Source: Planctomycetota bacterium
Lineage (GTDB): Bacteria > Planctomycetota > UBA11346
Assembly: GCA_038213805.1 (NCBI GenBank)
Contig: JBBQSO010000002.1
Span: forward strand, 74,361 to 138,360
Direction: 5' to 3'
Length of the DNA: 64,000 nucleotides
This document shows, piece after piece, positions 14,836-28,150 of the stretch. The position numbers and the translations under genes are program-made. Below the pieces are notes generated by a model. That model did no database searches. It was not told where the DNA came from and saw only the letters and a list, made by a program, of their open reading frames with translations. The first letter of the stretch is position 1. Each line of letters opens with the position of its first letter.

Positions 14836-16440
<1,605 letters not shown>

Positions 16441-17860: not shown

Positions 17861-19351
17861 TCAGGAAATGCGCTCCGCCCGCGACGACTGCAGCAACGCG
17901 TCCGCCGCGTGCGCCTGCAGCCACGCGCGCCGCAGCAGCAGCGCGCCCCCGGCGATCAACGCACCCATGATCGCGGCTTCACGCAGCCCCAGCGGCACCT
18001 GCGGGTAGTAGGCGGTCTCGTCCAGGCCGGCGACGGAGAAGGTGTAGTTGTCCTGGAAGCGGTAGGCGCCGGGCGCCGCGTACCAGGCGGCGGTGGTCAC
18101 CTGGCCCGGATAGAGCGGATCTTCCGGATCATTCTGAAGCGGCCGGCAGAAGTCCTTGGTGGTGATCAGGCAGAGCAGGCCGCTGACGACCACCGCGAGC
18201 GTCGCGTAGGTCAGCCCACGCTGCGGCCAGCGGCGCGCGATCGTCACCGCCAGCGGCGGCAGGCCGACACCGGCGAGCATGATGAAGGCGACATGGTAGC
18301 GCAGCGGCGACCACCAGGTGCACTTGAATGCCAGCCACAGGCACTCCTGCGCGGCCAGGGCCGCAAGCACCGCCAGGGCGACGCGCCGCCACGCGCAGGT
18401 CGGGGTGCGGCCGCAGGCGACCAGGGCGGCGATGGCGCAGGGCAGCCACGGCACGCCCAGCACGACGATCGCGAGACCGCGCAGATTGTGCGGCAGCGAG
18501 GCGAGGGTCAGGGCGTTGCAGCCGTCGTCGTAATAGGTGTAGCCGGAGACCAGCGGGCCGCCGAAGCGGTGCCAATTCATCGCCAGAACCCCCGCCATGG
18601 GCAGCGCGGCCGCGCCAAGCAGCAATCCGGCCGCGCGCCAGCCGGCGCGGCTCCCGCGCCACAGCACCCAGGCCGCGCCGGCGCTCAACACACCCATCCC
18701 CGGGGCATTCGCGTTGTGGCACATCGCTGCCATGCCGAAGGCGAACCCCGCCAACAAGGCCAGACGCAGCGGCGTGCGCCCGTCGGCCAGGGCCAGTGCA
18801 ACCGCCCACAGGCCGAGCAGCGCGAGCAGGCCCACCACCGGCTCGACGTAGAACAGGCGGCTATAATAGAGGCCCGAGCCGCTGAGCACGAGCACTAGGC
18901 CGCCCCACGTCCCGGCGCTGCGCGGCAGGCGCAGCGCACGGGCGATGCCGGCCAGCGCCACCGCCGCGCCCGCGGTCGCCAGGGGCGACATCAGCGCCAT
19001 CAGCCAGCGATGGTGAAAGGCGCCGCCGCTCAGCCATTCCAGACCGGCTCCGAGCAGCACGAAAGGACCACTGAGGATGGGCAGGCCGATCGAAAAGCGG
19101 CTGTAGACCTCGCCGCGCGGGCCGAGGTGCTCCAGGCGCATGTCCCAGCGCCCGTCCAGCCACAGCGACTCCGCGTCCTGCGCGTACTCGTAGAGATCGT
19201 AGACGCCGAATGGGCCGACGAACCACGCCAGCAGCACCAGCAGCGTGCCGGCGAAAAGCAGCACGTCGCTGCGCCACGGCGCTGGCGCCCCCGGCAGCGC
19301 CAAGACCACGGGCCCAGGCGCCAGGGACGCGGAAGGTGGCCCGGCGCTCAT
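17861..19351 (-). CDS. Polytopic membrane protein, possible GT-C glycosyltransferase
   Basis: About 11 TM segments with an acidic loop (YDLYEY..D) after TM1; ATGA overlap with the GT2 gene. Confidence 0.6.
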   Translation of the reverse strand: MSAGPPSASLAPGPVVLALPGAPAPWRSDVLLFAGTLLVLLAWFVGPFGVYDLYEYAQDAESLWLDGRWDMRLEHLGPRGEVYSRFSIGLPILSGPFVLLGAGLEWLSGGAFHHRWLMALMSPLATAGAAVALAGIARALRLPRSAGTWGGLVLVLSGSGLYYSRLFYVEPVVGLLALLGLWAVALALADGRTPLRLALLAGFAFGMAAMCHNANAPGMGVLSAGAAWVLWRGSRAGWRAAGLLLGAAALPMAGVLAMNWHRFGGPLVSGYTYYDDGCNALTLASLPHNLRGLAIVVLGVPWLPCAIAALVACGRTPTCAWRRVALAVLAALAAQECLWLAFKCTWWSPLRYHVAFIMLAGVGLPPLAVTIARRWPQRGLTYATLAVVVSGLLCLITTKDFCRPLQNDPEDPLYPGQVTTAAWYAAPGAYRFQDNYTFSVAGLDETAYYPQVPLGLREAAIMGALIAGGALLLRRAWLQAHAADALLQSSRAERIS

Positions 19352-20790
19352 CGCATCGCCAACCGGCGCGCCGCGAACCACGCCATGCGCAGCAGGATCA
19401 GGCCGTGGCGCCAGCGCTGGATGTTGGTCTCGCCATAGACCCGCGCGTGGTAGCGCACCGGCACGTCGACCATGCGCAGGTTGAGCTTGGCGGCGCCCAG
19501 GATCAGGTCGAAGTCGCCGAAGGGGTCGAAGTCGCCGAAGAAGGCGCGGCCGGCCTCCAGGCGCAGGTAGTCGGCGCGCGCCAGGGCCTTGGTGCCGCAC
19601 AGCGTGTCGCCCAGGCGCTGGCCAAGGATCATCGACAGCACCGCCGCGAAGAACTTGTTGCCGAGCAAGTTGAAGAAGCGCATCGCGCTGGGCGCGAGCG
19701 GGTAGACCAGGCGCACGCCGTTGACGTACTCGCCGCGGCCGGAGCGCAGCGCCTCGTGGAAGGAGGCAAGGTCCTCGGGCGCCACCGCCATGTCGGCGTC
19801 GAGGATCATCAGCAGGTCGCCGGTCGCGGCGGCGAAGCCGCAACGCACCGCGTCGGCCTTGCCGCGGCCGCTATGGCGCAGCAGCTTCATGCTGCGCTCC
19901 GGGTGCTCGGCGATGCAGCGCGCGATCTCCTCGGCGGTGCCGTCGCTGCTGCCGCCCTCGACGAAGATCAGTTCGGTGCCGGCGCCCATCTCGGGCACGC
20001 GCGCGACGATGTCGCGGATGGTGCCGGCCTCATTGCGCGCCGGCACGATGACGCTGACGCGCTGCGGCGGACGCGGCGTGGCCTGCGGGCGGGCGACGAA
20101 GACCTGGGCGATGCCCAGGCCGCGCAGCGGCCACCAGCGGCCAAGCACGCGGTTGACCAGCGGGGCGAGCAGCGGGATGCCCAGCGGCAGCGGCATTTCG
20201 CGCCAGTCGCGCACCACCTCGAAGCCCGACAGGTAGAGCAGGTTGCGGACATCGCCCGCGGACAGCCAGTTCTGCGCCAGCATCGGCCGCGCCAGGCCGA
20301 GGCGGCGCGCGCAGGCCAGCGGCACCTGCCACAGGCGGTTGAAGCAGGTGATGATCAGGCGCGTGCCGGGATGGCAGTGCGGCTGCAGCCGGCGCAGCAC
20401 GGTCTCGACGTTCCACAGGTCATCGACCAGGTCGGAAAGCACGATGTAGTCGAAGGTGCCGGTCAGCGGCGGATCGTGGGCATCTGCCTGGATGAATTCG
20501 AGCTGCGGGTGACGGATACGAGCCTGATCGAGGGCCACCGCGCTCACATCCAGGCCGACGCCGCGCCGCGGCTTGAGCGCGGCCAGCAGGTCGCCGGTGC
20601 CGCAGCCGACCTCCAGCACGGCCATGTCCGGCGGCACCAGGAACCCATGCAAGGCCTGGAGCTGCCGGTGATAATAACCGCCGAGCGTCCACCGCGGCTT
20701 GGCCGCGACGTGGTCCCAATGTTGGACCCGCGTCCGCCGATGGTCGGCGCGCAGGCGCTGCGTACCGGTTTCCGTGTCGGACAGCAGCAT
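19348..20790 (-). CDS. Methyltransferase-GT2 (polyprenol-phosphate glycosyltransferase-like) fusion
   Basis: VLEVGCGTG; VSVIVPARNEA, ILDAD and DTLCGTK motifs. Confidence 0.9.
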   Translation of the reverse strand: MLLSDTETGTQRLRADHRRTRVQHWDHVAAKPRWTLGGYYHRQLQALHGFLVPPDMAVLEVGCGTGDLLAALKPRRGVGLDVSAVALDQARIRHPQLEFIQADAHDPPLTGTFDYIVLSDLVDDLWNVETVLRRLQPHCHPGTRLIITCFNRLWQVPLACARRLGLARPMLAQNWLSAGDVRNLLYLSGFEVVRDWREMPLPLGIPLLAPLVNRVLGRWWPLRGLGIAQVFVARPQATPRPPQRVSVIVPARNEAGTIRDIVARVPEMGAGTELIFVEGGSSDGTAEEIARCIAEHPERSMKLLRHSGRGKADAVRCGFAAATGDLLMILDADMAVAPEDLASFHEALRSGRGEYVNGVRLVYPLAPSAMRFFNLLGNKFFAAVLSMILGQRLGDTLCGTKALARADYLRLEAGRAFFGDFDPFGDFDLILGAAKLNLRMVDVPVRYHARVYGETNIQRWRHGLILLRMAWFAARRLAMR

Positions 20791-20945
20791 CCCGTCAGCA
20801 TACCCCGGCATCCGGCATCCCGCACGACCCGGGCGGGTCGGTAGTGGCACCTGGCGATCCTTGCGGATTGCGGAACTCCCCGTCTCAGGCCATGGATTGC
20901 AAGCCGCCACCCCCTTCCCACCATGACCAGCACTAGGCAGAGCCC

Positions 20946-21956
20946 ATGGACGGTCCCACATTCCTGCTCTTTTACGCCGCGATCGCCGCGGTCCTCCTTG
21001 GCCTGTGCCGCTGGCGCAACCGCGCCGCGCCGCCGCGCCTGACGCCGCTGCGCGAGTTGCCGGCCGACCCGGAACCCTACGAGGTGGCCTGGCTGCGCGG
21101 TGGCGGGGCAGAGATCGTGCGCCTGGCGGTTTTCGACCTGATGCGCTGCAGCTACCTGGCGATCGAGAAGGCCGGCTCCGCGAGCGGCGGGACGCGCCGC
21201 ATCGCGCGCATCGCCGAACCCTCGCCCGAGGCCGCGATCTCGCCCTTCGCGCGCATGACCTGGGCGGCCTGCGCCGTGCCCATGCCGGCCTGGAAGCTGC
21301 TGCAAGGCACTCTGCCCAAGCGCATCGATGAACGCTGCCGGGCTTTGCGCACGCGCTTCGAGGAGCAGGGCCTGGTGATCCGGCCGGCGCTGCGCTTCCA
21401 AGGCATTCTCATGACCCTTGCTGCCGTGGCGGCCCTGCTCGTCCTCGGCTTCTGGCGCATCGAGCGTTCGCTCGCTTCCGGGCACCACAACCTTGGCTTC
21501 CTGGCGGCGCTGATGGCGATCAGCATCGTGGTGGCGCTGCGGGCCACCCTGCCGCCCGCGCGGCTGACCAGCCATGGGCGCGCCTACCTGGCTGGACTGG
21601 TGGCGGGCAGGCCGGATGCGCGGACGGCGTCGCCCGCACGCGCGCCCGCAGCGGCCGCTACGCGCTCAGCGCATGCCGCGGACGCGGAGCCGCTCGCCGC
21701 CGGGATGCCGATGGCGCCCGCCCTGCTCGGCGTCGCGCTGCTCGGCTTCCCGGCACTGGCCGGAACAAATTACGCGGTGATGGGCGAGCTCTTCCCACGC
21801 GCCCAGGCGCCAGGCAACGGCTCGTCGTGCAGCAGCGGTTCGTCCTGTGGCAGCAGTTCCTCCTGCGGCAGCAGCAACTCTGGCGGGGATAGCGGCGGTG
21901 GCAGCGACGGCGGCAGCAGCGGCTGCGGCGGAGGCTGCGGTGGCGGTGGCGACTGA
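20946..21956 (+). CDS. TIGR04222-type membrane protein with a Cys/Ser/Gly low-complexity C-terminal tail
   Basis: MDGPTFLLFY, PYEVAWLRGG, RLTSHGRAYL; tail SSCSSGSSCGSSSSCG...GCGGGCGGGGD. Confidence 0.88.
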   Translation: MDGPTFLLFYAAIAAVLLGLCRWRNRAAPPRLTPLRELPADPEPYEVAWLRGGGAEIVRLAVFDLMRCSYLAIEKAGSASGGTRRIARIAEPSPEAAISPFARMTWAACAVPMPAWKLLQGTLPKRIDERCRALRTRFEEQGLVIRPALRFQGILMTLAAVAALLVLGFWRIERSLASGHHNLGFLAALMAISIVVALRATLPPARLTSHGRAYLAGLVAGRPDARTASPARAPAAAATRSAHAADAEPLAAGMPMAPALLGVALLGFPALAGTNYAVMGELFPRAQAPGNGSSCSSGSSCGSSSSCGSSNSGGDSGGGSDGGSSGCGGGCGGGGD

Positions 21957-22782
21957 GTCGACGGCGCTGCTCGGCGCCGGCCTCGGCTGGCGCACACCTC
22001 TCGCGTCCGGCATCCTGCAGCAGCGCGCGCGCATCGACGTCATCGAGATCGTCGCCGACCACTTCCTTGACGCCGCGGGCGAGACGCTGGCGGAGCTCGA
22101 CCTGCTGCGCGCGCACTTCACCGTCATCCCGCATGCACTCGATCTGTCATTGGGCAGCGCCGACGGCGTCGACGGCGCGTATCTCGACAAACTCGCCGCG
22201 CTGATCGAGCGCCTGGATCCGCCGTGGTGGAGCGAGCACCTTGCCTTCACACGCGCCGGCGGAATGCGCATCGGCCATCTCATGCCCCTGCCGCGGACGC
22301 GCGCCGCGGTCGCGGTGGTGGGGCGCAACGTCGCGCAGGTGGCCCGTACCATCCGCACGCCGCTGCTGCTCGAGAACAGCGCCGCGCAGTTCACCCTGCC
22401 AGGTGGACTTGATGAGGCGGAGTTCCTTGGCGCGGTGGTCGACGCGACCGGCTGTGGCCTGCTGCTCGACCTCGCCAACCTGCACGCCGATGCGGTCAAC
22501 CACGGCGGCGATGCGCGCACGCTGCTCGCGCGCCTGCCGCTGGAGCGCGTCGTGCAGCTCCACCTCGCCGGTGGCGACCTCGATCGCGGCATGCTGGTCG
22601 ACAGCCACGCCAGCGCGGTCGCGCCCGCGGTCTGGGCGCTGGCCGCGGACGTGCTGGCGCACGCCCCGGTGCGCGCGGCGATCCTCGAACGCGATGCGCG
22701 CTTCGCCGGCATCGGCCCGCTGCTCGATGAGCTTGACCTGCTGCGCGCGCGCTGGCCGGCCCTGCAGGCCGCGCGCGCATGA
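21946..22782 (+). CDS. Multinuclear non-heme iron-dependent oxidase (MNIO, DUF692 family)
   Basis: GLGWR, PHALDLSLG, SEHLAF, LLEN, LLDLANL, LHLAGG, VDSH and ILERD motifs; GTG start (21946 or 21940) after GGAGG, overlapping the upstream stop. Confidence 0.92.
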   Translation: MATESTALLGAGLGWRTPLASGILQQRARIDVIEIVADHFLDAAGETLAELDLLRAHFTVIPHALDLSLGSADGVDGAYLDKLAALIERLDPPWWSEHLAFTRAGGMRIGHLMPLPRTRAAVAVVGRNVAQVARTIRTPLLLENSAAQFTLPGGLDEAEFLGAVVDATGCGLLLDLANLHADAVNHGGDARTLLARLPLERVVQLHLAGGDLDRGMLVDSHASAVAPAVWALAADVLAHAPVRAAILERDARFAGIGPLLDELDLLRARWPALQAARA

Positions 22783-23378
22783 GCGCTGCCGAGCCCGACC
22801 TGGCCGCACTGCAGGCGCAGCTGGCGCGCGCGCTGGTCGATCCGGCCGCGCTTGCCGCGCTCACCGCGCGCCCGCCGGCGTGGCTGGCCGGCGATCCCGC
22901 GCGAGTGCGTGGGATCGCATTCGCCGCGCGCTCGCTGGTCGCCAAACGCCGCGCCGAAGCGTTGCCGTTGCTCGGCGCGGTCGCTGCGGCGCTGGGGCCG
23001 CCGCTGCGCGCGCGCTTCGAGGCCTTCGCTGCGACCCATGCGCCCGCCGCCGGCCAGCCGCGCAGCGATGCCCTGCGCTTGCTCGCCACGCTCGTCACCG
23101 ATCCGACCTTGCCCGCGTGGCTGCGCGCGCTGGCGCGCTGGCAGGCCGGTCTGGTGGCGGCCGCACGGCCCGGCCCGTTCCTGCGCCTGGAGCACTTCGC
23201 CTGGCGCGTCGACCGCCAGCGCGGCGCGGACCCGCCCGACCCAGGCGTGTTGATCGCGGCGTGGTGGCGCTGGTCGCGGCGCGGCCGGCTCCATCATGTC
23301 CGCCTCATGCCCCCCCGCCGCCGCCTGCCGCCGTCCGATCTGGATCCCCTCAACCTGCCGCGCGGAACCCGCCCATGA
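22779..23378 (+). CDS. Putative MNIO partner protein
   Basis: ATGA overlap with the MNIO gene; helical N-terminus LAALQAQLARAL...SLVAKR resembling DUF692-associated partner domains. Confidence 0.65.
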   Translation: MSAAEPDLAALQAQLARALVDPAALAALTARPPAWLAGDPARVRGIAFAARSLVAKRRAEALPLLGAVAAALGPPLRARFEAFAATHAPAAGQPRSDALRLLATLVTDPTLPAWLRALARWQAGLVAAARPGPFLRLEHFAWRVDRQRGADPPDPGVLIAAWWRWSRRGRLHHVRLMPPRRRLPPSDLDPLNLPRGTRP

Positions 23379-23713
23379 GCTGGCCGCTGCTCATCATCAT
23401 CGGCAGCCAGCTGCTGTTCACCCTCAGTGATCTCATTGCCCGCATCCACATGAAGTCAGGCGGCTTCACTGTCGCCAACTTCATGACGATGTGGTTCGCC
23501 GGATACATGCTGATCCGCCTGGTCGCCACCGTCGGCCAGCTCTACATCTTCGCGAGCATCGACCTTGGCAAGAGCATGGCGCTGTTCGGGGCCGCCTCGA
23601 TCGTGCTCGCCAACCTGCTCGGCTTCCTGGTGCTCAAGGAGGTGCTGTCGCCGACCGTGTACGTGGCGGTCTCGATGGTGGTCGTCGCGTTCATGATCCT
23701 CGCCTGGCGCTAG
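23375..23713 (+). CDS. Small 4-TM SMR/EamA-like (ArnE/F-like) transporter
   Basis: 112 aa, four hydrophobic helices, LGFLVLKEVLS motif; ATGA overlap with the previous gene. Confidence 0.75.
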   Translation: MSWPLLIIIGSQLLFTLSDLIARIHMKSGGFTVANFMTMWFAGYMLIRLVATVGQLYIFASIDLGKSMALFGAASIVLANLLGFLVLKEVLSPTVYVAVSMVVVAFMILAWR

Positions 23714-23776
23714 TTCGCCGAAGCGTGGCCTCAGCAGCATGCGGCCGTGTGCGCAGACGTTCCCCCGACTCGCGGC

Positions 23777-24946
23777 TCAATACGCGGTGATCGACGGATC
23801 GATCTGCTCGCCCCACGCCAGGATGCCGCCCTCCAGGTTCAGCACCTTGGTGAAGCCGTGCTTCTGCAGGGTCTCGAGGGCCTTCATGCTGCGCCGCCCC
23901 GACTTGCACTGGGCGACGATGAGCTTGTCCTTCCACGCGGCGAGCTCGCCGAGGCGCGCCGGCAGCTGGCCGAGCGGAATGTTGAGGTTGCCGTCGATCT
24001 GGCAGACGCCCAGCTCGGACGGCTCGCGCACGTCGAGCAGCAGGTGCTCGGTGCCGGCCTCGCGCAGTTCGGAATAATCGCCGACCGAGATCTCGAGTCC
24101 ACTCATGCCGCTGTCGCTTTCTCCGCGTTTCAGGCCGCAGAATTCCTGGTAATCGATGAGCTGGGTGATGGTCGGATTCCGCCCGCACACCGGGCACGTC
24201 GGATCGGGCCGCAGCTTGAGCTCGCGGAAGGTCATGTTCAATGCGTCGTAGCGCAGGAAGCGCCCGGCCAGGGTGCGGCCCATGCCGGTCAGCACCTTGA
24301 TCGCCTCGGTGGCCTGGATCATGGCGATGCTGCCGGGCAGCACGCCCAGCACGCCGCCCTCGCTGCACGACGGCACCTCGCCGGGCGGCGGCGGTTCGGG
24401 GTACAGGAAGCGGTAGCACGGCCCGTTGCGGGTGCCGTCCGGCTGCTTGCGCACGTCGAAGACCGTGGCCTGGCCTTCGAAGCGGTAGATCGACCCGTAG
24501 ATGTTCACCTTGTCGAGGAACACGCAGGCGTCGTTGACCAGGTAGCGGGTCGGAAAGTTGTCGGTGCCGTCGATGACGATGTCGTACTTGGCGATGATCT
24601 CGAGCGCGTTGCCGGAGTTGATCCCCTCCTCATAGACCTCGACGACGACGTCGGGATTGAGGTCGTTGATGCCGCGCTTGGCACTCTGCGCCTTACTGGT
24701 GCCGACGTCCTGGGTGCGGTGGATGATCTGGCGCTGCAGGTTCGAGACGTCGACCGCGTCGAAGTCCATGATGCCGATGCGCCCGACCCCGGCCGCGGCC
24801 AGGTAGAGGGCAAGGGGCGAACCCAGGCCGCCGGCGCCAATCAACAGCACCGCCGACTTCAGCAGCTTCTCCTGGCCCATCTCGCCGAACTCGGGCAGGG
24901 TCAGGTGGCGGGCATAGCGCAGGTACTGGTCGCGTTTCAGCGGCAT
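23777..24946 (-). CDS. moeB: Molybdopterin-synthase adenylyltransferase MoeB/MoeZ with rhodanese domain
   Basis: RYARH, GAGGLGSP, SNLQRQ, PCYR, CPVCG; C-terminal rhodanese motifs (DVRE, CKSGRRS, LEGGILAW). Confidence 0.93.
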   Translation of the reverse strand: MPLKRDQYLRYARHLTLPEFGEMGQEKLLKSAVLLIGAGGLGSPLALYLAAAGVGRIGIMDFDAVDVSNLQRQIIHRTQDVGTSKAQSAKRGINDLNPDVVVEVYEEGINSGNALEIIAKYDIVIDGTDNFPTRYLVNDACVFLDKVNIYGSIYRFEGQATVFDVRKQPDGTRNGPCYRFLYPEPPPPGEVPSCSEGGVLGVLPGSIAMIQATEAIKVLTGMGRTLAGRFLRYDALNMTFRELKLRPDPTCPVCGRNPTITQLIDYQEFCGLKRGESDSGMSGLEISVGDYSELREAGTEHLLLDVREPSELGVCQIDGNLNIPLGQLPARLGELAAWKDKLIVAQCKSGRRSMKALETLQKHGFTKVLNLEGGILAWGEQIDPSITAY

Positions 24947-25026
24947 GGGCTCTCCGGAGCGGCGGGCGCGGGATCATGCAGGCGCGGCGGACGTGAAAAG
25001 GGGAAAGCCTGTGCGCCTGCGGCGCG

Positions 25027-25201
25027 GTCCGGGAGTCCGGGAGTCAGGGAGTCAGGAAGTCGCGGAGGACAATGAACAACCCAAATGACCCGGTCGCGCG
25101 TGGACGCAGGTAGAGGATTTCAGAGCGGTGCGTCACGACCGGGCATGGATTCGCCCATGCCTACGAGACTTCCGGACCTCCGGACTTCCGGACTTCCGGA
25201 C
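25027..25201. repeat. Inverted pair of GTCCGGAA arrays (25027-25065 and 25163-25201)
   Basis: Four units per arm; the right arm overlaps the MEKHLA 3' end. Confidence 0.9.
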
Positions 25202-25673
25202 CCTCACCCAGCACCGTCCAATTCGCGAACGTCGCCGCCTGACCCGCCGGCGCCCCATCTTCGTCCACCAGGTTCCACAGCAGCGCGTCTTCGATGCGGA
25301 AGCGCCGGCCGGTCGCGGTGATGCGGATGCCGCGGTAACCGGCGAAGAAGCCGTCGCGCTGCGCCTGGGCGAGCATCGCGGCGCGCTCCGGGCCGAACTC
25401 GGGTTCGGCTGAACGGCGCGAGGGCAGGGCCAGGAAGCTGGGCCAGTCGAGTTCCCACAGGTGTTGGGCGGTGTGGTTGGCATAGATGAACAGCGGGTCG
25501 GGGCCCGGCGCATGCGCCAGGACCACCGCCGGCAGCTCGTACAAGTCGCGGGCGAGCTCCGCCGCCGGCGCCTCCGGCACCAGCTCGCGACCGGTCCAGC
25601 GGCGGTGGCTGGCCACGATGATGCGGCTCAGGCGCTGGATCGCCGGGGTCTGCCAGGGCGGGGGTGCGCTCAT
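25161..25673 (-). CDS. MEKHLA domain protein
   Basis: DPLFIYANHTAQHLWE, LPSRRSAE, YRGIRITATGRRFRIE and GQAATF motifs; tail is repeat-derived. Confidence 0.88.
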   Translation of the reverse strand: MSAPPPWQTPAIQRLSRIIVASHRRWTGRELVPEAPAAELARDLYELPAVVLAHAPGPDPLFIYANHTAQHLWELDWPSFLALPSRRSAEPEFGPERAAMLAQAQRDGFFAGYRGIRITATGRRFRIEDALLWNLVDEDGAPAGQAATFANWTVLGEGPEVRKSGGPEVS

Positions 25674-25811: not shown

Positions 25812-26756
25812 ATGCCTGTCGTGACCAGCCGCTCCGCCTCCATCCTGCGCCGGGCCCTGCCCTGCGCCCTGCTGCTGCTTGCGGTGGTGCCCCTGGCCTC
25901 GGCCGGCGAGGACGGCGGTTTCTCGCTGTGGCGGCTGTTCGGGCGCCTGCACGTGCTGGTGGTGCACTTCCCCGTCGCCCTGCTGCTGGTCGCCGCCCTG
26001 GTCGAGGTGGTGCAGTGGAAGCGCCGCGAGGTGTCGGAGACCACCCTATGGTTCGTGATCGTGGGCGCGATCAGCGCGGTCGGCGCCGCGGCGATGGGCT
26101 GGGCCAACGGTGATGAGCACCATGACGGCGGCCTCGACCTGCTGCTGCACCGCTGGCTGGGCGTCGCCACCGCGGTGCTGTCCTGCGTGACCGCCGGTAT
26201 CGCCCTGCGCCTGCGCACCGCCGATTTCGGGGTGATGCCGCGCCGCGTGTTCCGCGTCCTGCTCTTCACCACGTCGATGGTGGTGGGCGCGACCGGCCAC
26301 TTCGGCGGCAACCTGGTGCACGGCTCCGACTACGTGACGTCGGCCCTGCCGGCCTGGGCGAAGGCGCTGATGCCGACCGTGGCGGAACGCCACAGCGATC
26401 CGGCGACCGCACCGGGAACCCTAGCGGTCGACCCCGCCGCCCTGAACGGCCCCGTCGATTTCACCCGCGACATCGAGCCGATCTTCAAGAAGTCCTGCTA
26501 TGAGTGCCACAACGACAAGGAGCAGAAGGGGAAGCTGCGCATGGACAGCCGCGAGGCCCTGCTCAAGGGCGGCGAGAACGGCCCCGGCTTCGAACTCGGC
26601 AACGGCGACAAGAGCGCGATCATCCAGCGCATCCGCGGCGAGGGCGACGACCCGCGCATGCCGAAGAAGAAGCCGCCGCTGAATGCCGATCAGACCGAGG
26701 TGATCAAGCGCTGGATCGATCAGGGAGCGGTGTGGGCGAAGGCCAAGGACGGCTGA
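25812..26756 (+). CDS. Membrane protein (DUF2231-like) fused to a planctomycete-type cytochrome c domain
   Basis: RLHVLVVHFPVALL, H-R-W-L-G, GHFGGNLVHG; VDFTRDIEPIF..CYECH..MP..WIDQGA. Confidence 0.88.
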   Translation: MPVVTSRSASILRRALPCALLLLAVVPLASAGEDGGFSLWRLFGRLHVLVVHFPVALLLVAALVEVVQWKRREVSETTLWFVIVGAISAVGAAAMGWANGDEHHDGGLDLLLHRWLGVATAVLSCVTAGIALRLRTADFGVMPRRVFRVLLFTTSMVVGATGHFGGNLVHGSDYVTSALPAWAKALMPTVAERHSDPATAPGTLAVDPAALNGPVDFTRDIEPIFKKSCYECHNDKEQKGKLRMDSREALLKGGENGPGFELGNGDKSAIIQRIRGEGDDPRMPKKKPPLNADQTEVIKRWIDQGAVWAKAKDG

Positions 26757-26950
26757 TGGCTGATGGCTGATGGCTGATGGCTGATGGCTGATGGCTGATG
26801 GCTGATGGCTGATGGCTGATGGCTGATGGCTGACGACCGGCGCGGGGCGCCGGTCGTCTATTCGTACCTGGCTGGTCGCAGCGCTGATGCTGCAGTACGT
26901 CGATGGGCAGAACGCGGCCGCTGTCAGCTGCCAGCTGACAGCCGTCAGCC
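26751..26950. repeat. (GGCTGAT)11 heptamer array with a degenerate inverted partner at 26923-26950 and a 12-bp hairpin at 26832-26858
   Basis: 11 perfect units at 26751-26827 plus ggctgac; partner gtcagct gccagct gacagcc gtcagcc. Confidence 0.95.
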
Positions 26951-27013
26951 AGAAGGATCCCTGCCACCCGGCCACGCACATTGCGCTCCTGGATCCGCTC
27001 CGACCATCCAGCA

Positions 27014-28150
27014 ATGCTGATCCCCTGGGCCACCGATGCTCCGGTCTATCACCGTCCGTGGGGCACCATCGGGCTGATCATCGCCAACATCCTGATCTTC
27101 GCCTGGGAGCTCCACGCCGATCCTGAGACCATCGCGGATCTGGTCCTGCGCTTCGGCGATGGCTATCATCCGGTGCAGTGGCTGACCAACCACTTCCTGC
27201 ACGCCGACATCATGCACCTGCTCGGCAATATGGTGTTCCTGTGGGTCTTCGGCCTGATCGTCGAGGGCAAGCTCGGCTGGCGGCGCTTCCTGCCGCTCTA
27301 TCTCGGCATCTGCCTGCTCGACTCGGTGATCGTGCAGAGCGCGATGCTCGGCGCCGACGAGGGCGGCGCGCTCGGCGCGTCGGGCGCGATCTTCGCGCTG
27401 ATGCTCATCAGCCTGGTGTGGGCGCCGGCGAACGAGATCAGCTGCCTGCTGTTCATCTGGATCGTGCCCAAGACCTTCGACGCACCGGTGTGGGTGATCT
27501 GCACGCTCTTCCTGCTGTGGAACGTGCTGATGGCCGCGCTCGACTCCTTCACCATGGGCACCGCCATGCTGCACCTCAGCGGTGCGCTGGTCGGGGCCGG
27601 CGCGGGCGTGCTGGCGGTGCGCAGGACATGGGTGGACTGCGAGGGCTGGGACGTGTTCTCGCGCGTGGCGAACTGGCGCGGCAAGGCGCCGCCGCGGGCA
27701 GCCGTGCGCAGCGTCGACGAGTCGACCGTGAAGCACGACCTGGCCGAACGCCGCGCCCAGGCCCAGGCGCTGATCCGCGAGTACGTCGTCAGCGGCGAAG
27801 GCGCCCTGGCCTTGCGCGTGCTGCGTGAGGCGACCCTCGCGACCGGCCGCTGGGGGCTCGAGCGTTCTGATCTGCTCGGCCTGATCGACGCGCTGATCGC
27901 CGAGCGCGCCTTCACCGAGGTGCGGCCGCTGCTCGCCGAGGCGCTGCAGCGCTTCCCTGACGCCGCGCCCGGCCTGCGCCTGCACGAGGCGCGCATGCTG
28001 CTCGACCTGCGCCGCCCGGCCAAGGCCCTTGAGCTGCTCGACGCGCTGGAACCCGACGCCCTCGACGCGCACCAACAGGGCGAACGCGAGCGCCTGCGCG
28101 GCGCCGCACGCACGCTGATCGCCGCGGGCGTCCTCGAGATCGACGATTGA
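27014..28150 (+). CDS. Rhomboid intramembrane serine protease with C-terminal helical (TPR-like) domain
   Basis: FLHADIMHLLGNM, GASG catalytic Ser, LHLSG catalytic His. Confidence 0.92.
   Translation: MLIPWATDAPVYHRPWGTIGLIIANILIFAWELHADPETIADLVLRFGDGYHPVQWLTNHFLHADIMHLLGNMVFLWVFGLIVEGKLGWRRFLPLYLGICLLDSVIVQSAMLGADEGGALGASGAIFALMLISLVWAPANEISCLLFIWIVPKTFDAPVWVICTLFLLWNVLMAALDSFTMGTAMLHLSGALVGAGAGVLAVRRTWVDCEGWDVFSRVANWRGKAPPRAAVRSVDESTVKHDLAERRAQAQALIREYVVSGEGALALRVLREATLATGRWGLERSDLLGLIDALIAERAFTEVRPLLAEALQRFPDAAPGLRLHEARMLLDLRRPAKALELLDALEPDALDAHQQGERERLRGAARTLIAAGVLEIDD

Follow-up and report, generated by a model that had tools for sequence, protein, structure and literature searches.

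MNIO enzymes of the DUF692 family have been described in several small gene systems. In methanobactin biosynthesis the precursor is a small leader-core peptide, the modification gives oxazolone-thioamide pairs and the product is a secreted chalkophore; TglH excises the Cys beta-carbon on a peptide-Cys adduct, and ApyH modifies a C-terminal Asp. Bufferins are linked to copper in the abstract of Antoine et al. (2025, Microb Genom, PMC12452194), and 5-thiooxazole formation has been assigned to the large MNIO group around them (Gadgil et al., preprint PMC12668002); the 5-thiooxazole-forming MNIO FonBC favours Cys-Gly dyads, each modified Cys becoming 4 Da lighter (Gadgil et al., PMC12668002). Antoine et al. 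also propose, in silico, that subsets of TIGR04222 proteins are MNIO substrates with 'PME-type 2' partners. In their survey, MNIO genes are preceded by genes for over 1000 Cys-containing proteins that lack a signal peptide, 40% of them TIGR04222 proteins, and the nature of the modification, in their words, 'remains to be investigated' (PMC12452194). The locus described here comes from a Planctomycetota bacterium (lineage UBA11346, assembly GCA_038213805.1) and lies on contig JBBQSO010000002.1 in a stretch of 64,000 nucleotides (positions 74,361 to 138,360; G+C about 70%), termed the window, whose numbering is used throughout unless another locus is named. It consists of four genes, A to D, in series on the plus strand at 20946-23713, gene A encoding a TIGR04222 membrane protein with a Cys-rich tail, gene B an MNIO, gene C a partner protein and gene D a small membrane protein.

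Genes A, B and C probably form a three-gene cassette in which B, together with C, oxidises the tail Cys residues of membrane protein A to 5-thiooxazoles. The two families at the centre of this reading are clearly recognisable. Protein A matches TIGR04222 (near_uncomplex), alone among the NCBIfam models, at 75.9 bits against a curated cut-off of 43, its residues 9-241 covering positions 2-224 of the 229 in the profile, and protein B matches Pfam PF05114 (MbnB_TglH_ChrH) at 253.8 bits (E 2.1e-75, threshold 25; profile 1-259 of 263). These hidden Markov model (HMM) comparisons had been suggested by the initial annotation, which had also placed the four overlapping genes correctly and given the size, membrane nature and five-Cys tail of A exactly. 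Its proposal that the tail is the substrate of the MNIO gains from the conserved linkage and from the lack of a separate precursor in the window, both described below; the idea itself had already been published independently (Antoine et al. 2025), and the modification is one that we infer.

The linkage was assessed across genomes. With B alone as the query, and hence in a sample unbiased towards TIGR04222, 70 genomic loci were retrieved, 65 of them near loci with MNIOs 46-86% identical to B and five more distant at 36-42%; two of the 65 lack upstream DNA, which leaves 63 assessable. A Cys-tailed TIGR04222-type gene stands beside the MNIO gene in all 63, usually with overlapping or abutting reading frames at the A-B junction, and since it recurs in every assessable locus of a sample retrieved in this way, the pairing is real and far beyond chance. 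Neighbourhood statistics had been proposed at the outset as a check, with a lack of conserved linkage between the two families as the outcome that would tell against the idea; the linkage is conserved. The open reading frame (ORF) upstream of the MNIO gene exceeds the TIGR04222 cut-off in 56 of the 68 loci with upstream DNA, and the 12 below it comprise the five distant loci, four with frameshift-split genes, one in which a different ORF was picked, one at a contig end and one, L057, with a divergent gene. A profile built from the family recovers an A-type member in all 63 near loci with upstream DNA, and a mechanical detector of Cys tails scored 61 of the 70 loci as positive, one of these calls being spurious. 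Two tandem TIGR04222 genes precede the MNIO gene in L049 (3855-5990), L051 (483-2540) and L061 (3768-5923). Cassette genes split over several frames were seen in metagenome-assembled loci (L001, 3008-8009; L011, L019, L060 and L063, upstream of the MNIO), and assembly indels at G-rich repeats, not real pseudogenes, are the most likely explanation.

The five distant loci are of the bufferin type: none has a Cys-tailed TIGR04222 gene, each encodes a DUF2063 partner, and weak BufA2-like precursors turn up in two. In a tree of 70 rows, from which L066 was left out as incomplete, the 65 near MNIOs fall on one side of a branch supported at 100 in the Shimodaira-Hasegawa-like approximate likelihood-ratio test (SH-aLRT), with B and the MNIO of L001 as the deepest branch of the clade. 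The clade spans more than nine phyla and both low- and high-GC genomes; Planctomycetota, Verrucomicrobiota, Acidobacteriota, Chloroflexota, Pseudomonadota, Cyanobacteriota, Nitrospirota, Myxococcota and Actinomycetota are among them. Clustering of all ORFs of at least 80 aa in the 12-kb flanks found A, B and C as the only families common across taxa, every other cluster being limited to at most 30 loci and essentially a matter of Methylocystis synteny. Almost half of the MNIO rows (31 of 65, among L002-L045) belong to Methylocystaceae, Beijerinckiaceae and unclassified Alphaproteobacteria in that clade, Methylocystis and Methylocapsa included. This alphaproteobacterial clade is made up largely of methanotrophs, which depend on copper and have a high demand for it, and such membership fits a copper-related role as a weak hint.

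The tail of A has the composition expected of a substrate of such an enzyme. Five of the nine Cys residues of the protein lie in it, at residues 295, 301, 307, 327 and 331, and four of the five are followed directly by Gly. Statistics on the last 45 residues of 51 distinct tails gave 3-10 Cys per tail, mostly spaced 3-4 residues apart, with Gly as the next residue in 233 and Ser in 22 of 258 cases; the C-terminal residue is Asp in 30 of the tails and Gly in 16. These Cys-Gly dyads match the preference of the known MNIO FonBC and in this way support a role of the tail as the substrate of B. An 18-nt tandem repeat in the tail-coding DNA (Table 1) suggests how such tails lengthen.

No competing substrate emerged from the window. 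None of its 118 small, Cys-containing, coding-like ORFs matches any model of a precursor of peptides made by the ribosome and modified after translation (RiPPs), which bears out the earlier remark that no small precursor ORF lies nearby, and a six-frame scan found the tail of A as the sole Gly/Ser-rich C-x-C-x-C stretch. Signatures of DUF2282, BufA2 or EGKCG are absent from A and from the small ORFs of the window, and clustering of the 12-kb flanks revealed no other Cys-rich gene common to them.

Gene C, which had been called partner-like, is a DUF2063-like MNIO partner ('PME-type 2') as judged from its predicted fold and from profile comparison. Its product gives no Pfam or NCBIfam match, DUF2063 (PF09836) being absent at E 0.01. 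An AlphaFold model built from 45 sequences, with a predicted local distance difference test score (pLDDT) of 90.3 and a predicted template modelling (pTM) score of 0.79, consists of six helices followed by three strands and resembles TglI and NGO1945, on which resemblance the assignment rests: Foldseek against the PDB returned TglI (8hci_A, E 3.3e-4, probability 1.00; 8hi7_A, probability 1.00) and NGO1945 (3dee, probability 0.97, TM score 0.47) as the sole strong matches. Comparison of the C family with the DUF2063 partners of the bufferin-type loci by hhalign gave a probability of 87.8% (E 3.3e-6, 124 columns), and jackhmmer unites the two, the Pfam DUF2063 cut-off being reached by none of 61 partners from TIGR04222-type loci as against all five from bufferin-type loci. 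A C homologue directly follows the MNIO gene in 63 of the 65 near loci, and the partner family counts 3419 cluster representatives at E 1e-3 or better, 400 of them at 1e-30 or better. A hypothetical protein encoded after such an MNIO gene can thus be called a DUF2063-like partner in annotation. Protein C contains no Cys. A search of PDB sequences with the C profile returned designed helical repeats at the top and weak matches to LigA, SonA and nitrile hydratase (E about 0.1-0.7). The first 50 or so residues of the C family (22779-22930) bear a faint likeness to the helical RiPP leader motif of the LigA/nitrile-hydratase type, based on SonA and LigA in the PDB (E about 0.6) and on sub-threshold Pfam matches to LigA and Frankia_peptide in three homologues; a common helical hairpin is probably all that lies behind it.

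Protein B is by sequence a relative of BufB, not an equivalog. BufB (NF050167) is its best NCBIfam model at 215.1 bits, below the equivalog cut-off of 310, followed by HvfB (176.6 bits, cut-off 360), ApyH (103 bits) and MbnB (40.8 bits, cut-off 325). Among proteins of solved structure 3bww is closest in sequence, then TglH (8hci_D, 76 bits) and MbnB (7dz9, 27-32 bits), and the motifs of B align with the metal-ligand motifs of both MbnB and TglH. The His, Asp and Glu motifs expected of the enzyme are indeed present, and H65, H100, E145, D177, N180, H208, D221, H223 and E250 show no variation among 44 aligned members of the subfamily; iron-binding residues are presumably among them, as in MbnB structures. 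The conserved part of the protein begins about 10 residues after GTG 21940.

The AlphaFold 2 (AF2) model of A is well folded (pLDDT 78.8) except for residues 288-336, and together with hydropathy it gives four hydrophobic helices. The soluble domain between the first two carries the conserved motif PDPYEIAYLRGG. Foldseek found no match to the A model in the PDB at E 0.001 or better (GOLPH3/Vps74 at the top, E 1.2), and residues 27-146 returned TIGR04222-like or unnamed clusters alone from the ESM Atlas, all below 0.9. In 35 homologues, K/R-rich stretches follow the first transmembrane helix, precede the second and follow the third (medians 3, 3 and 4 per 15 residues), while no such enrichment is seen in the N-terminus, in the short loop 2 or in the tail, the tail having a net negative charge in 30 of the 35. 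Under the positive-inside rule the soluble domain is therefore probably cytoplasmic, and the side on which the tail lies would depend on the fourth helix, which is rather short: periplasmic if this helix crosses the membrane, cytoplasmic if not. A periplasmic tail is also what Antoine et al. describe (PMC12452194), though with the large domains in the periplasm and not, as here, in the cytoplasm; with four helices, a periplasmic tail and periplasmic large domains are not both possible.

Taken together, the following course of events is proposed. Protein A would be made first, and the ribosome would start again inside the tail codons to make B and at the ATGA overlap to make C, the overlapping frames allowing enzyme and helper to be made beside the nascent tail. 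B and C would form the usual MNIO-partner complex, in which C probably holds on to a conserved segment that immediately precedes the tail. This segment, residues 250-287, consists of a short hydrophobic helix ending in AL-x-GT and then an aromatic/Met-Phe patch, both conserved, and is a possible handle for recognition by the partner. B would then oxidise the Cys-Gly dyads, 5-thiooxazole at -4 Da per Cys being the most probable product, and, if the fourth helix spans the membrane, the finished tail would face the periplasm as a tethered row of metal-binding heterocycles. By analogy with bufferins, a role in copper handling would follow, and the product would be a membrane-anchored relative of the copper-buffering bufferins and captophorins. 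A more far-reaching version, which is possible but doubtful, takes A as the first known case of an integral membrane protein rewritten by an MNIO, one with its own recognition module, whose thiooxazoles, tethered on the periplasmic face, would capture or sense copper at the membrane and not buffer it in solution. The helix-helix-hairpin domain and the AL-x-GT...F motif would here dock B and C in cis, replacing both a leader peptide and the recognition part lost by the shortened partner, with modification of the tail preceding insertion of the last helix. A complex prediction with B, C and residues 262-336 of A scored the tail at 0.00 against a mark of 0.32, the partner's own fold being uncertain in that prediction, which thus counts neither for binding nor against it.

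Several observations weigh against modification of the tail by B and C. Of the two tandem TIGR04222 genes in L061 it is the outer one that keeps the Cys tail, the copy adjoining the MNIO gene being without it. A periplasmic tail would require a cytoplasmic enzyme to act before the last helix inserts. That the ribosome-binding site and start of gene B lie within the tail-coding DNA, as the initial annotation put it, holds as a reading of the sequence, and many other loci have comparable sites, but selection for them is without statistical support: a Shine-Dalgarno-like core occurs in the last 22 nt of the upstream gene at 25 of 59 junctions, a number that Gly-rich DNA could yield by chance, and GGA makes up 0.16 of the Gly codons among the last six tail codons and 0.17 elsewhere, hence no enrichment. 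A full-text search for TIGR04222 returned Antoine et al. (2025), its preprint and one unrelated paper, and neither there nor among the listed 2025-2026 papers on MNIOs and captophorins, as far as these were accessible, was there an experimental study of a TIGR04222 protein. As B scores below the cut-offs of both BufB and HvfB, their chemistry is not simply transferable to it. Finally, according to the genome survey in Antoine et al. (PMC12452194), 490 of 1372 complete genomes with TIGR04222, a third, have no MNIO gene, and many Cys-bearing TIGR04222 genes have no MNIO neighbour, from which it follows that the tail has some MNIO-independent role elsewhere.

This last point also speaks for the first alternative, in which the tail is not modified at all: its Cys and Gly residues would bind metal or form disulfides unaided, A would be a scaffold, sensor or export partner, and the true substrate would be encoded elsewhere in the genome, of which the precursor search covered 64 kb. 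Against this stand the Cys-tailed copy beside the enzyme in every assessable locus, usually in overlapping or abutting frames, the lack of any other Cys-rich gene common to the flanks and the fit of the Cys-Gly dyads to MNIO preference, and this alternative is unlikely. Rather unlikely, too, is that the tail is the substrate of a different chemistry, namely oxazolone-thioamide formation, beta-carbon excision or modification of the C-terminal Asp. The sub-cut-off scores of B, its match to ApyH, the Asp at the end of 30 of 51 tails and the best fold match of C, which is TglI and not a bufferin partner, can all be read in this way. BufB is nevertheless the best-scoring model for B, and the 16 tails ending in Gly show that Asp is not universal; it may be no more than a consequence of the overlap with the start of B. 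MNIOs with DUF2063-type partners, a large group, have been reassigned to 5-thiooxazole formation (Gadgil et al., PMC12668002).

In a third alternative A is a giant precursor whose modified tail is cleaved off and released as a soluble peptide, the membrane body serving as leader and export device. The short hydrophobic helix ahead of the tail could serve as a cleavage site for an intramembrane protease, and a rhomboid-family protease fused to TPR repeats is encoded 3.3 kb downstream (26981-28150), which could in principle free the tail from the last helix. However, no protease family is common to the flanks of the 65 near loci, the rhomboid gene, which flank clustering did not find conserved near the cassette in other loci, stands outside the conserved block, and another gene occupies that side in L001, the closest relative, so that release of the tail is very improbable. 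That the adjacency is due to chance or an annotation artefact, with an untranslated tail frame, is refuted by the comparative data: high-GC DNA yields many long spurious ORFs and the tail DNA is a simple repeat, but the tail continues the reading frame of a gene that passes a curated HMM cut-off, its third-position GC is 0.79 against 0.88 in the body of gene A, and the architecture recurs in low- and high-GC genomes of more than nine phyla.

The features of the locus are collected in Table 1. Genes A and B overlap by 17 nt and B and C, like C and D, by 4 nt (ATGA). Third-position GC is 0.86-0.94 across the four genes, gene A standing at 0.86, and a stop in the same frame, four codons upstream, fixes the ATG start of gene A. 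The block is a self-contained unit, since the upstream neighbour, a methyltransferase fused to a family-2 glycosyltransferase, is divergent from gene A and the downstream neighbour (ThiF plus rhodanese), which gene D abuts, is convergent. The spacer 5' of gene A measures about 150 nt; an inverted-repeat scan of it gave a single 10-nt palindrome, which lies within gene A. A promoter and terminator scan of 20500-24100 found none of either, and 19000-25500 gave no Rfam match up to E 1. On the same strand, 4.5 kb upstream of the cassette (14836-16440), lies a gene for a sigma-54-dependent activator whose domains are GAF, AAA+ and HTH_8.

Table 1. Coordinates of the cassette genes and of the elements within them
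Feature	Position	Strand	Description
Gene A	20946-21956	+	336 aa TIGR04222 membrane protein, candidate substrate
Soluble domain of A	21024-21383	+	Residues 27-146, helix-helix-hairpin core; pLDDT >90 over most
Fourth hydrophobic helix and AL-x-GT...F motif	21693-21806	+	Residues 250-287; hydropathy 1.81; helices 256-271 and 278-282; conserved columns (35 homologues)
Disordered Gly/Ser/Cys tail	21807-21953	+	Residues 288-336, candidate modification site; pLDDT <50
18-nt tandem repeat	21813-21872	+	3.3 copies, encoding Ser-Ser-Cys hexapeptide units; Tandem Repeats Finder, 78% matches, score 71
GGAGG, Shine-Dalgarno-like site for gene B	21930-21934	+	5 nt before GTG 21940, made of tail Gly codons
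Gene B	21940-22782	+	MNIO (DUF692) enzyme, 280 aa if the start is GTG 21940
Gene C	22779-23378	+	199 aa DUF2063-like MNIO partner ('PME-type 2')
Gene D	23375-23713	+	112 aa small 4-TM (transmembrane) protein, DMT/SMR-like

Gene D, the small transporter of the initial annotation, is present as described and lies outside the conserved system. Its product matches no NCBIfam model, and its match to Pfam EamA is weak, though aligned end to end (E 0.28, 11.9 bits, cut-off 28.2), and its look-alikes in the ESM Atlas are EamA/SMR clusters at 0.97. By tblastn it occurs in only one of the 70 loci, L001, a planctomycete locus 86% identical in its MNIO, and as no fourth family is common across taxa it was rejected as a core member; although translationally coupled to C, it is probably a lineage-specific passenger. 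The minus strand at 17861-20961 (compare 3008-4885 in L001), divergent from A, encodes the methyltransferase-glycosyltransferase fusion and a 482-aa membrane protein without a Pfam match. As the fusion gene and gene D are both syntenic in L001, D may, speculatively, be a functional partner of the glycosylation genes, for example a lipid-sugar flippase, and not of the MNIO. Downstream of the cassette, a perfect 7-nt tandem repeat of GGCTGAT (26751-26833, 11.9 copies, 100% matches) covers the stop of a PSCyt1/DUF2231 gene (25812-26756) and the spacer before the rhomboid gene; its unit not being a multiple of three, a change in copy number would shift the reading frame. An 8-nt tandem repeat, GACTTCCG (25167-25201, 4.4 copies), lies at the 3' end of a minus-strand gene with a MEKHLA domain (25161-25673).

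If the tail is modified, MNIO chemistry reaches from small secreted peptides to polytopic membrane proteins, and bacteria of many phyla would own a surface-tethered metal-binding device. The cassette is compact as well as widespread, with three genes and a substrate region of about 50 residues.

Among the characterised MNIO systems, methanobactin (MbnA-MbnB-MbnC) shares with this locus an MNIO and a partner acting on Cys and the alignment of the metal-ligand motifs, whereas B is far from MbnB in sequence and C belongs to a different partner family. TglH-TglI of the 3-thiaglutamate pathway (8hci, 8hi7) is nearer, TglI being the best structural match of C and TglH the second-best solved relative of B; the substrate and the chemistry differ, however, and no membrane protein takes part. 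Bufferins and captophorins (BufA-BufB-BufC-DoxX, FonABC and oxazolin/HvfA) have in common with the locus the enzyme type, with BufB as the best model for B, a partner of DUF2063 fold and Cys-rich substrates with Cys-Gly dyads, and by analogy 5-thiooxazole formation and copper handling are likely here too. In contrast to these systems, the substrate would be a 336-aa polytopic membrane protein instead of a small secreted peptide with a Sec signal, the partner C, some 60 residues shorter, goes unrecognised by the Pfam DUF2063 model, and there is no DoxX gene.

The clusters of Antoine et al. (PMC12452194) are the same three families in the same order, with a disordered, Cys-, Ser- and Gly-rich C-proximal tail, a partner of NGO1945/TglI fold without the Pfam DUF2063 signature, and an MNIO near the bufferin enzymes; the planctomycete example in that paper is Pirellula staleyi. 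As in that class, a TIGR04222 gene with C-proximal Cys directly precedes the MNIO gene here, and nothing fundamental distinguishes the locus from those clusters, the coupled small gene D being extra. It thus joins an already proposed TIGR04222-MNIO class, and the underlying hypothesis is neither new nor proven. What is added to it here is a near-absolute linkage within one MNIO clade, a core of three genes, the fold of the partner at the locus itself, the Cys-Gly rule of the tails and an argument on topology.

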